Origin: Escherichia coli
GTDB lineage: Bacteria; Pseudomonadota; Gammaproteobacteria; Enterobacterales; Enterobacteriaceae
Length of the DNA: 64,000 bases
NCBI RefSeq assembly: GCF_030013595.1
Contig: NZ_CP122768.1
Strand: one strand, 5' to 3'
Below the pieces are notes generated by a model. It did not search any database. It saw only the letters and a program-made list of their open reading frames with translations, and was not told the origin of the DNA. A program made the position numbers and the translations under genes. The first letter of the stretch is position 1. Each line of letters opens with the position of its first letter. This document shows, one piece after another, positions 8,904-11,057 of the stretch.

Positions 8904-9512
8904 CTCTATCAGGATCATCCGTGGATGCGTGCTTTTGGTGAAAGCCTGGTGGCTTATCGCCCGCCTATCGACACCCGTAGCGTCAGTGAAATGCGCCAGA
9001 TACCGCCAAACGGCTTCCCGGAAAAAGCACTTAACTTCCTGACGCCGCATCAGAAATGGGGCATTCACTCAACCTACAGTGAAAACCTGCTAATGCTGAC
9101 GCTCTCTCGCGGTGGACCGATTGTCTGGATTAGCGAAACCGATGCCCATGAACTGACCATTGTCGATAACGACTGGGTGGAAGTGTTTAACGCCAACGGC
9201 GCGCTGACTGCCCGCGCGGTGGTCAGCCAACGTGTACCGCCGGGTATGACCATGATGTATCACGCTCAGGAACGCATTATGAATATCCCGGGCTCGGAAG
9301 TGACCGGAATGCGCGGCGGCATTCATAACTCGGTCACCCGCGTTTGTCCGAAACCAACGCATATGATTGGCGGTTACGCGCAGCTGGCCTGGGGCTTTAA
9401 TTACTACGGCACCGTCGGCTCGAACCGTGACGAATTCATCATGATCCGCAAGATGAAGAACGTTAACTGGCTGGATGATGAAGGTCGCGATCAGGTACAG
9501 GAGGCGAAAAAA
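8904..9512 (+). pseudogene. narZ: narZ 3' remnant (last ~203 codons) downstream of the in-frame amber; same frame, runs into narY without a stop
   Basis: Translation LYQDHPWMRAFGESLVAYRPPIDTRSV...DDEGRDQVQEAKK is colinear with the NarG C-terminus; 5775 + 3 x 1246 = 9513. Confidence 0.7.
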
Positions 9513-11057
9513 ATGAAAATACGTTCGCAAGTCGGCATGGTGCTTAACCTCGATAAATGTATCGGCTGCCATACCTGTTCGGTGACCTGTAAAAACGTCT
9601 GGACCGGACGCGAAGGCATGGAGTACGCATGGTTTAACAACGTCGAAACCAAACCGGGCATTGGTTATCCGAAAAACTGGGAAGATCAAGAAGAGTGGCA
9701 AGGCGGCTGGGTCCGCGATGTCAACGGTAAGATCCGCCCGCGTCTGGGCAGCAAGATGGGCGTAATAACCAAAATCTTCGCTAACCCGGTGGTGCCGCAG
9801 ATTGATGATTACTACGAACCTTTCACCTTCGACTACGAACATTTGCATAGCGCACCGGAAGGCAAACATATCCCTACTGCTCGTCCGCGTTCACTGATTG
9901 ACGGCAAACGGATGGACAAAGTGATCTGGGGGCCAAACTGGGAAGAATTGTTGGGCGGCGAATTCGAAAAACGCGCCCGTGACCGCAACTTCGAGGCCAT
10001 GCAAAAGGAGATGTACGGGCAGTTTGAAAACACCTTCATGATGTACCTGCCACGCTTGTGCGAACACTGCCTCAATCCCAGTTGCGTGGCGACCTGCCCA
10101 AGCGGCGCTATCTACAAACGCGAAGAAGACGGCATTGTGCTGATTGATCAGGATAAATGCCGTGGCTGGCGTTTGTGCATTAGCGGTTGTCCGTACAAAA
10201 AAATCTACTTCAACTGGAAAAGCGGCAAGTCAGAAAAATGTATCTTCTGTTACCCACGAATTGAGTCAGGCCAACCCACCGTGTGCTCAGAAACCTGCGT
10301 GGGTCGCATCCGATATCTGGGCGTGCTGCTTTACGACGCTGACCGCATCGAGGAAGCGGCGAGCACCGAGCGCGAAGTTGACCTCTATGAACGCCAGTGC
10401 GAAGTATTCCTCGATCCACACGATCCCTCAGTGATCGAGGAAGCCCTGAAACAAGGTATTCCACAAAACGTGATTGAAGCTGCCCAGCGTTCGCCAGTCT
10501 ACAAAATGGCGATGGACTGGAAACTGGCGCTACCGCTGCACCCTGAATATCGCACCCTGCCGATGGTCTGGTACGTTCCGCCGCTGTCACCGATTCAGTC
10601 TTACGCTGATGCGGGCGGTTTGCCGAAAAGCGAAGGCGTGCTCCCAGCCATCGAGAGCCTGCGTATTCCTGTGCAATATCTCGCCAATATGTTGAGTGCC
10701 GGCGATACCGGTCCGGTACTGCGGGCGCTGAAACGGATGATGGCGATGCGCCACTATATGCGTTCACAAACCGTGGAAGGCGTTACCGATACCCGCGCCA
10801 TTGACGAAGTAGGCCTGAGCGTCGCCCAGGTCGAAGAGATGTATCGCTACCTCGCCATTGCCAACTATGAAGACCGTTTTGTCATTCCAACCAGTCATCG
10901 GGAAATGGCGGGCGATGCCTTCGCAGAACGCAATGGCTGCGGTTTTACCTTTGGCGACGGTTGCCACGGCTCGGACAGCAAATTCAACCTGTTCAACAGT
11001 AGCCGTATCGATGCCATCAACATCACCGAAGTACGCGACAAAGCGGAGGGCGAATAA
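9513..11057 (+). CDS. narY: Respiratory nitrate reductase 2 beta subunit NarY (Fe-S)
   Basis: MKIRSQVGMVLNLDKCIGCHTCSVTCK; multiple Cys clusters; 514 aa. Confidence 0.9.
   Translation: MKIRSQVGMVLNLDKCIGCHTCSVTCKNVWTGREGMEYAWFNNVETKPGIGYPKNWEDQEEWQGGWVRDVNGKIRPRLGSKMGVITKIFANPVVPQIDDYYEPFTFDYEHLHSAPEGKHIPTARPRSLIDGKRMDKVIWGPNWEELLGGEFEKRARDRNFEAMQKEMYGQFENTFMMYLPRLCEHCLNPSCVATCPSGAIYKREEDGIVLIDQDKCRGWRLCISGCPYKKIYFNWKSGKSEKCIFCYPRIESGQPTVCSETCVGRIRYLGVLLYDADRIEEAASTEREVDLYERQCEVFLDPHDPSVIEEALKQGIPQNVIEAAQRSPVYKMAMDWKLALPLHPEYRTLPMVWYVPPLSPIQSYADAGGLPKSEGVLPAIESLRIPVQYLANMLSAGDTGPVLRALKRMMAMRHYMRSQTVEGVTDTRAIDEVGLSVAQVEEMYRYLAIANYEDRFVIPTSHREMAGDAFAERNGCGFTFGDGCHGSDSKFNLFNSSRIDAINITEVRDKAEGE

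Follow-up and report, generated by a model that had tools for sequence, protein, structure and literature searches.

The narZ gene of the window, by which we mean the whole 64,000-nt stretch of Escherichia coli DNA analysed here (assembly GCF_030013595.1, contig NZ_CP122768.1), is best read as a decaying pseudogene. Our preferred reading is that narZ was inactivated by an amber codon inherited within its lineage and was later hit, in this genome only, by a P878L substitution and by a slippage-born insertion of one A at the junction with narY. We assign this reading a probability of about 0.62.

The narZ-narY junction

The junction reads gcgatcaggtacaggaggcg-aaaaaaa-tgaaaatacgttcgcaagtc (window positions 9487-9533). 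Positions 9501-9520 are GAGGCG AAAAAAA TG AAAAT, with the narY ATG at 9513-9515. The original prediction, made from the sequence alone, had described this junction as GAGGCG followed by seven A and TG, and the A run is indeed located at 9507-9513. It had also stated that 1246 narZ codons end exactly at the narY ATG; starting from the narZ ATG at 5775, 5775 + 1246 x 3 = 9513, and the arithmetic is correct. The NarZ length of 1246 aa on which the prediction rested agrees with the 3741-nt CDS that RefSeq annotates in K-12 and in three other genomes. The features of the locus are listed below; clone-mates are assemblies of the window's own lineage.

4292..5680, + strand: narU (nitrate/nitrite transporter), intact, upstream neighbour of narZ; collinear with the annotated narU of HCP5S3_I2 and MEI003
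5775..9512, + strand: narZ pseudogene, 1246 codons (nitrate reductase Z alpha subunit); from translation and 99.9% nucleotide identity to annotated narZ
8406..8408, + strand: CTA (Leu) in place of CCA (Pro878), private to the window genome; from comparison with clone-mates and references
8901..8903, + strand: in-frame TAG (CAG to TAG, narZ codon 1043), inherited, the primary cause of inactivation; from translation and comparison
8925..9512, + strand: residual ORF of 196 codons after the amber; from the list of open reading frames, Pfam PF01568 and clone-mate gene calls
9499..9504, + strand: AGGAGG, putative Shine-Dalgarno sequence of narY; read directly
9507..9513, + strand: A7 homopolymer (ancestral A6 with a +1 insertion); from the sequence and comparison with relatives
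9513..11057, + strand: narY (beta subunit), 514 aa, intact; from annotation and an identical protein in the closest relative
9514..9516, + strand: TGA, the ancestral narZ stop, now off the narZ frame; read directly, with AAA AAA TGA in frame in the references
11057-11752, + strand: narW, intact; from comparison with the closest relative
11749-12429, + strand: narV, intact; from comparison with the closest relative

Near the junction the narZ frame translates as ...DQVQEAKK-MKIRSQVGM..., and the translation over the junction, ...DEGRDQVQEAKK-MKIRSQVGM..., is stop-free at that point. The inserted A throws the ancestral TGA out of frame and aligns the narZ frame with that of narY. The terminal TGA overlapping the narY ATG (ATGA), as a functional narZ would have it, is displaced by the A7 run. 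A run of seven A is not unusual by itself, and eight 7-nt homopolymers are found in the 44.5 kb compared. What goes beyond chance is that, at a deeply conserved site, the window differs from all its relatives.

Length of the A run in other genomes

The original prediction had suspected a +1 change in the A homopolymer and had proposed comparing its length with reference junctions. We queried complete E. coli genomes with a 47-mer carrying A7 between 20-nt flanks, for which an A6 genome cannot supply the 28-nt megablast seed. This query was found in none of the 5426 genomes, and the 46-mer with A6, used as a control, was found in 5378 of them (the locus being present in 5396). A5 was detected once, in E24377A, and A8 in none of the complete E. 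coli genomes. K-12, MEI003 and HCP5S3_I2 all present GAGGCG-A6-TGAAAAT, with RefSeq annotating a 4-nt overlap between narZ (3741-nt CDS) and narY (annotated narH), and A6 was likewise observed in every assembly that we examined from the window's own lineage.

The search was extended to species representatives with a pattern accepting A6 or A7. All 56 representatives of other species with a genuine ...AKK-stop/MKIRSQ nar alpha/beta junction presented A6, including Citrobacter, Enterobacter, Klebsiella, Raoultella, Lelliottia, E. albertii and E. whittamii. Matches to the A7 pattern in MAGs of Acidobacteria, Lentisphaerae and Spirochaetaceae were set aside as chance occurrences that are not nar junctions. 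Among metagenome contigs, the A7 junction yielded zero matches. These comparisons support the suspected +1 change, the named comparators all showing A6 with the ATGA overlap and none of them seven A; they indicate that this arrangement is the deeply conserved ancestral state, relative to which the window carries one additional A.

The wild-type junction of the narZYWV operon in K-12 and relatives shares with the window its genes, their order, the AGGAGG and the narY ATG (nucleotide identity of the window is ~96% to K-12 and 99.9% to HCP5S3_I2). In contrast, the wild type has A6, the ATGA stop/start overlap and a 1246-aa NarZ, whereas the window has A7, a stopless junction and an amber at codon 1043. 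E24377A (L073, NC_009801.1) resembles the window in that a 1-nt length change of the same homopolymer abolishes the ATGA overlap. Its change is -1 rather than +1, however, and both the in-frame fusion and the amber are absent; the annotation gives an intact narZ of 1256 codons with a short altered tail and a 35-nt overlap with narH.

An amber codon within narZ

The narZ frame had originally been described as running into narY without a stop. This is true from position 8904 onward, but the TAG at 8901-8903, which had been overlooked, closes the frame upstream, 204 codons before the junction. The translation around it is ...TLSGRQ-stop-LYQDHPWMRAFGE..., and the references have CAG at this codon. 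The list of open reading frames splits the narZ frame into 5652..8903 and 8925..11057. The latter, of 710 aa, is the longest and only ORF that crosses the junction, as opposed to a fusion of 1760 aa.

The narZ of the window thus combines three lesions: the amber at codon 1043, P878L and the absence of a terminal stop. Orthology and synteny are as for a functional gene, with the order narU-narZ-narY-narW-narV and high identity to annotated narZ, but the uninterrupted ORF of ~1246 codons is broken at codon 1043. The amber cuts off the C-terminal molybdopterin-dinucleotide-binding domain of NarZ; the Molydop_binding domain (PF01568) falls in the 196 residues after it. Because of this upstream amber, narZ is a pseudogene whatever the length of the A run, and the lost terminal stop is of little functional weight since the gene is already inactivated.

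Lineage and order of the lesions

The closest complete genome is HCP5S3_I2, which is 99.9% identical and collinear over window positions 1-44574 and which presents CAG and A6. Two alleles that appeared private relative to complete genomes, CurA A137P and McbR K6I, proved to be recorded in over 100 blocks of the public assemblies, and the window therefore belongs to a well-sampled lineage, whose CurA, McbR and YddE alleles are carried by roughly 100-170 blocks. Clone-mate contigs were retrieved through the YddE allele, which gave nine loci. Seven of these (L082 and L084-L089) show only 4-7 differences from the window per 9-17 kb, and all seven present TAG at codon 1043, A6 and Pro878. The other two (L081 and L083) are HCP-like, with CAG. 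Three further loci (L101-L103) also combine TAG, A6 and Pro878; of these, L101 (three samples, with 18 similar places) has just two differences from the window in 8.6 kb, at positions 8407 and 9507. The C at 8407 is found in the seven clone-mates, in L101-L103 and in every reference, and Pro878 is invariant among all the narZ sequences compared.

Gene calls in the clone-mates consist of a 1042-aa product, a 196-aa product and NarY. The 196-codon residual ORF ends there at the TGA of the ATGA overlap, whereas it is joined in frame to narY in the window. The collection contains the 196-aa product in 96 blocks, and an exact-product look-up of the 710-aa fusion ORF found it in none. Draft assemblies of clone-mates (e.g., GCA_021649585.1, GCA_021649245.1 and GCA_021649105.1) carry the window haplotype with 2-7 differences per 9-17 kb and share with the window the amber codon and a +G at 17948 in the RHS gene. 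Unlike the window, all of them have A6 and Pro878.

Since the clone-mates present TAG together with A6 and Pro878, the amber came first and was inherited within the lineage, and P878L and the additional A arose in the window genome only. The distribution of the alleles shows that CAG to TAG at codon 1043 was the first step in this lineage; P878L and the +1 A in the terminal A6 tract, whose privacy is shown by the same comparison, would then have followed in the window isolate alone. The A insertion most likely occurred by replication slippage, and its origin is presumably biological rather than artefactual.

This order of events is what a decaying unitary pseudogene would present. The disabling lesion is inherited, with the amber in the clone-mates and CAG in HCP5S3_I2, L081 and L083, and different descendants have acquired independent further lesions (the window, L086, L103 and L102). 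The secondary indels in clone-mates are a +G at 6179, in a G3 run (L086 and L103), and a -G at 8729 in L102, which is a Logan assembly (public sequencing run). The dead narZ thus accumulates frameshifts and is decaying independently in several isolates.

Mutation or assembly error

A tentative alternative is that a faulty consensus or assembly produced the seventh A; the true genome would then have A6, and the inherited amber would still make narZ a pseudogene. Long-read assemblies classically retain +1 errors in runs of 6-7 nt, and the window is unbroken across IS1, ISAs1, the RHS gene and the prophage, which suggests long-read sequencing. The absence of A7 from the 5426 complete E. coli genomes, the clone-mates examined and the metagenome contigs is also consistent with an error. 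The only other public A7 junction is found in GCA_019430965.1 (the source of protein P0001), which resembles the window in presenting A7 and a predicted ORF running from NarZ' into NarY. This assembly has a different haplotype (98% identity) and CAG at codon 1043, however, and every one of its genes is broken (~111 gap positions per 13.5 kb). By this comparison, its A7 is clearly one artefact among many, and a miscall at the junction therefore does happen.

Several observations argue against an error in the window. Where at least three clone-mates cover the window (~36 kb), its private differences are 8407 C>T, 9507 +A, 17874 T>A, 19170 G>A and 42856 C>T, and none was found relative to clone-mates in the prophage part (49-64 kb). 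The additional A is the only private 1-nt indel in the ~56 kb covered by clone-mates, beside four private substitutions; clone-mates present a similar number of private changes each. Of the homopolymers of at least 6 nt, 48 out of 49 match HCP5S3_I2 in length. Generally unreliable homopolymers in this assembly are rejected on this basis. In addition, the lone indel sits in an already dead gene that can tolerate real frameshifts and that carries them in clone-mates, and the chance that a random error would fall in the dead narZ is estimated at ~7% (3.7 kb of ~56 kb).

Exact-product look-ups for a second assembly of the isolate found the 710-aa ORF, the 1042-aa NarZ and the 1111-aa RHS fragment absent from the record, and two 'repaired' versions of the 1246-aa NarZ were likewise absent; no such second assembly emerged. 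Overall, we favour a real mutation over a miscall, and a single homopolymer miscall appears to us rather unlikely. The meaning of the A7 run is ordinary either way: an already inactivated gene carries a secondary lesion or one isolated error of the consensus.

Other differences between the window and its relatives

Two of the four private substitutions create TAG in one gene, the RHS toxin gene (17856-22503, - strand), which is intact in clone-mates (1559 aa). The first is CAG to TAG at 19168-19170 (Q1112stop) and the second is AAG to TAG at 17872-17874, 16 codons ahead of the natural stop. The same gene presents a cluster of SNPs at 18454-18730 relative to the sister lineage that looks like an exchange between RHS paralogues. 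The substitutions at 19170 and 42856 share the 8-mer context AGCTACCG, probably by coincidence.

A prophage (44575-64000) adjoins ydcR and is apparently inserted in hicB; clone-mates have it, but HCP5S3_I2 lacks it. Its genes include a serine recombinase (45972-47666), a helicase, a lambda-J-like tail tip (52250-56026) and a tail fibre (62059-63984). An IS1 copy (48256-49022, with InsA at 48310-48585 and InsB at 48504-49007) splits the helicase gene, which is a single ORF of 496 aa in the clone-mates L093 and L094. Finally, an IS200/IS605 insertion downstream of an ompC-like porin gene is found in HCP5S3_I2 (L003 14965-15671) and is absent in the window (~1272).

An improbable fusion or recoding role for the A run

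It is conceivable on paper that the A7 run is functional, either by producing a NarZ-NarY fusion or as a +1 slippage site that restores the TGA, perhaps combined with an amber that is read through or suppressed. The two frames are joined, and by arithmetic alone a +1 slip on AAA AAA A would put TGA in frame. With an amber suppressor that inserts glutamine, NarZ would regain its wild-type Gln1043. We nevertheless consider such a role effectively refuted, and its likelihood negligible. The TAG located 204 codons upstream closes the frame that a slippage site would need to be open. The run is not conserved in relatives, A7 being present in none of the 5426 complete genomes, the clone-mates examined, the 56 species or the metagenome contigs. 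The accompanying P878L also strikes a proline that is invariant in all compared narZ. Moreover, among the 150 best junction-spanning proteins of 1.84 billion representatives, none is a full-length fusion; all are at most 547 aa long and several have out-of-frame tails past the junction. A natural alpha-beta fusion was rejected as well, the longest ORF being 710 aa and the library matches being short fragments or frameshift products.

No full-length NarZ-NarY fusion would be made because ribosomes already stop 204 codons upstream, which in the window's lineage would be at 8903. Through the ATGA overlap, wild-type genomes can couple the alpha to the beta subunit by termination-reinitiation. In the window, NarY retains its own AGGAGG and ATG and would be synthesized essentially as in the clone-mates; the spacer from AGGAGG to the narY ATG is 8 nt, versus 7 nt in A6 genomes, and should still lie within the usual range. 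At most, a restart at the ATG at 8925 would yield a 710-aa NarZ'-NarY chimera instead of termination at TGA and re-initiation at ATGA.

The same amber codon in other E. coli

CAG to TAG at codon 1043 is also found in 204 complete E. coli genomes, which are mostly clinical and K-12-like. This group (e.g., M217 NZ_AP019189.1, H8 and ECSD228) resembles the window in the identical codon change and in its intact narY, narW and narV, but differs in its K-12-like haplotype (~3-4% nucleotide divergence) and its A6. The five amber genomes that we examined all have A6 and share one K-12-like haplotype, which is identical over 1455 nt in the four compared. RefSeq annotates narZ as an 'internal stop' pseudogene in all five. 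A search of the literature on a narZ pseudogene or premature stop returned nothing relevant.

The SNPs that flank the amber in the window, at 8834 and 8990, are those of the window's own haplotype, and a 281-nt segment of the window has no match at 100% in complete genomes. Because of this, either the amber has two independent origins or it was transferred on a tract of less than 156 nt. Import by recombination from the K-12-like group would fit only such a tract, and the sequences neither support nor exclude it. Independent ambers in two unrelated lineages, followed by later lesions, could reflect recurrent selection for the loss of NRZ or a mutational hot spot, with the A7 chimera altering the supply of the beta subunit. 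If this were true, a real A7 would turn the leftover 196-codon ORF and narY into a 710-aa NarZ'-NarY chimera with that effect; we consider this very improbable. That two haplotypes share the amber is curious but does not amount to a new type of feature.

Implications

In practical terms, annotators should mark narZ as a pseudogene (internal stop and lost terminal stop) and call narY from the ATG at 9513; the 710-aa ORF at 8925-11057 should not be reported as a protein. Our preferred reading, a narZ decaying after an inherited amber, implies that the second (stress-associated) respiratory nitrate reductase has been lost, with narYWV kept, in one lineage of E. coli and separately in a large, mostly clinical group. 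The loss of narZ fits the dispensability of NRZ, on which it constitutes a minor data point.
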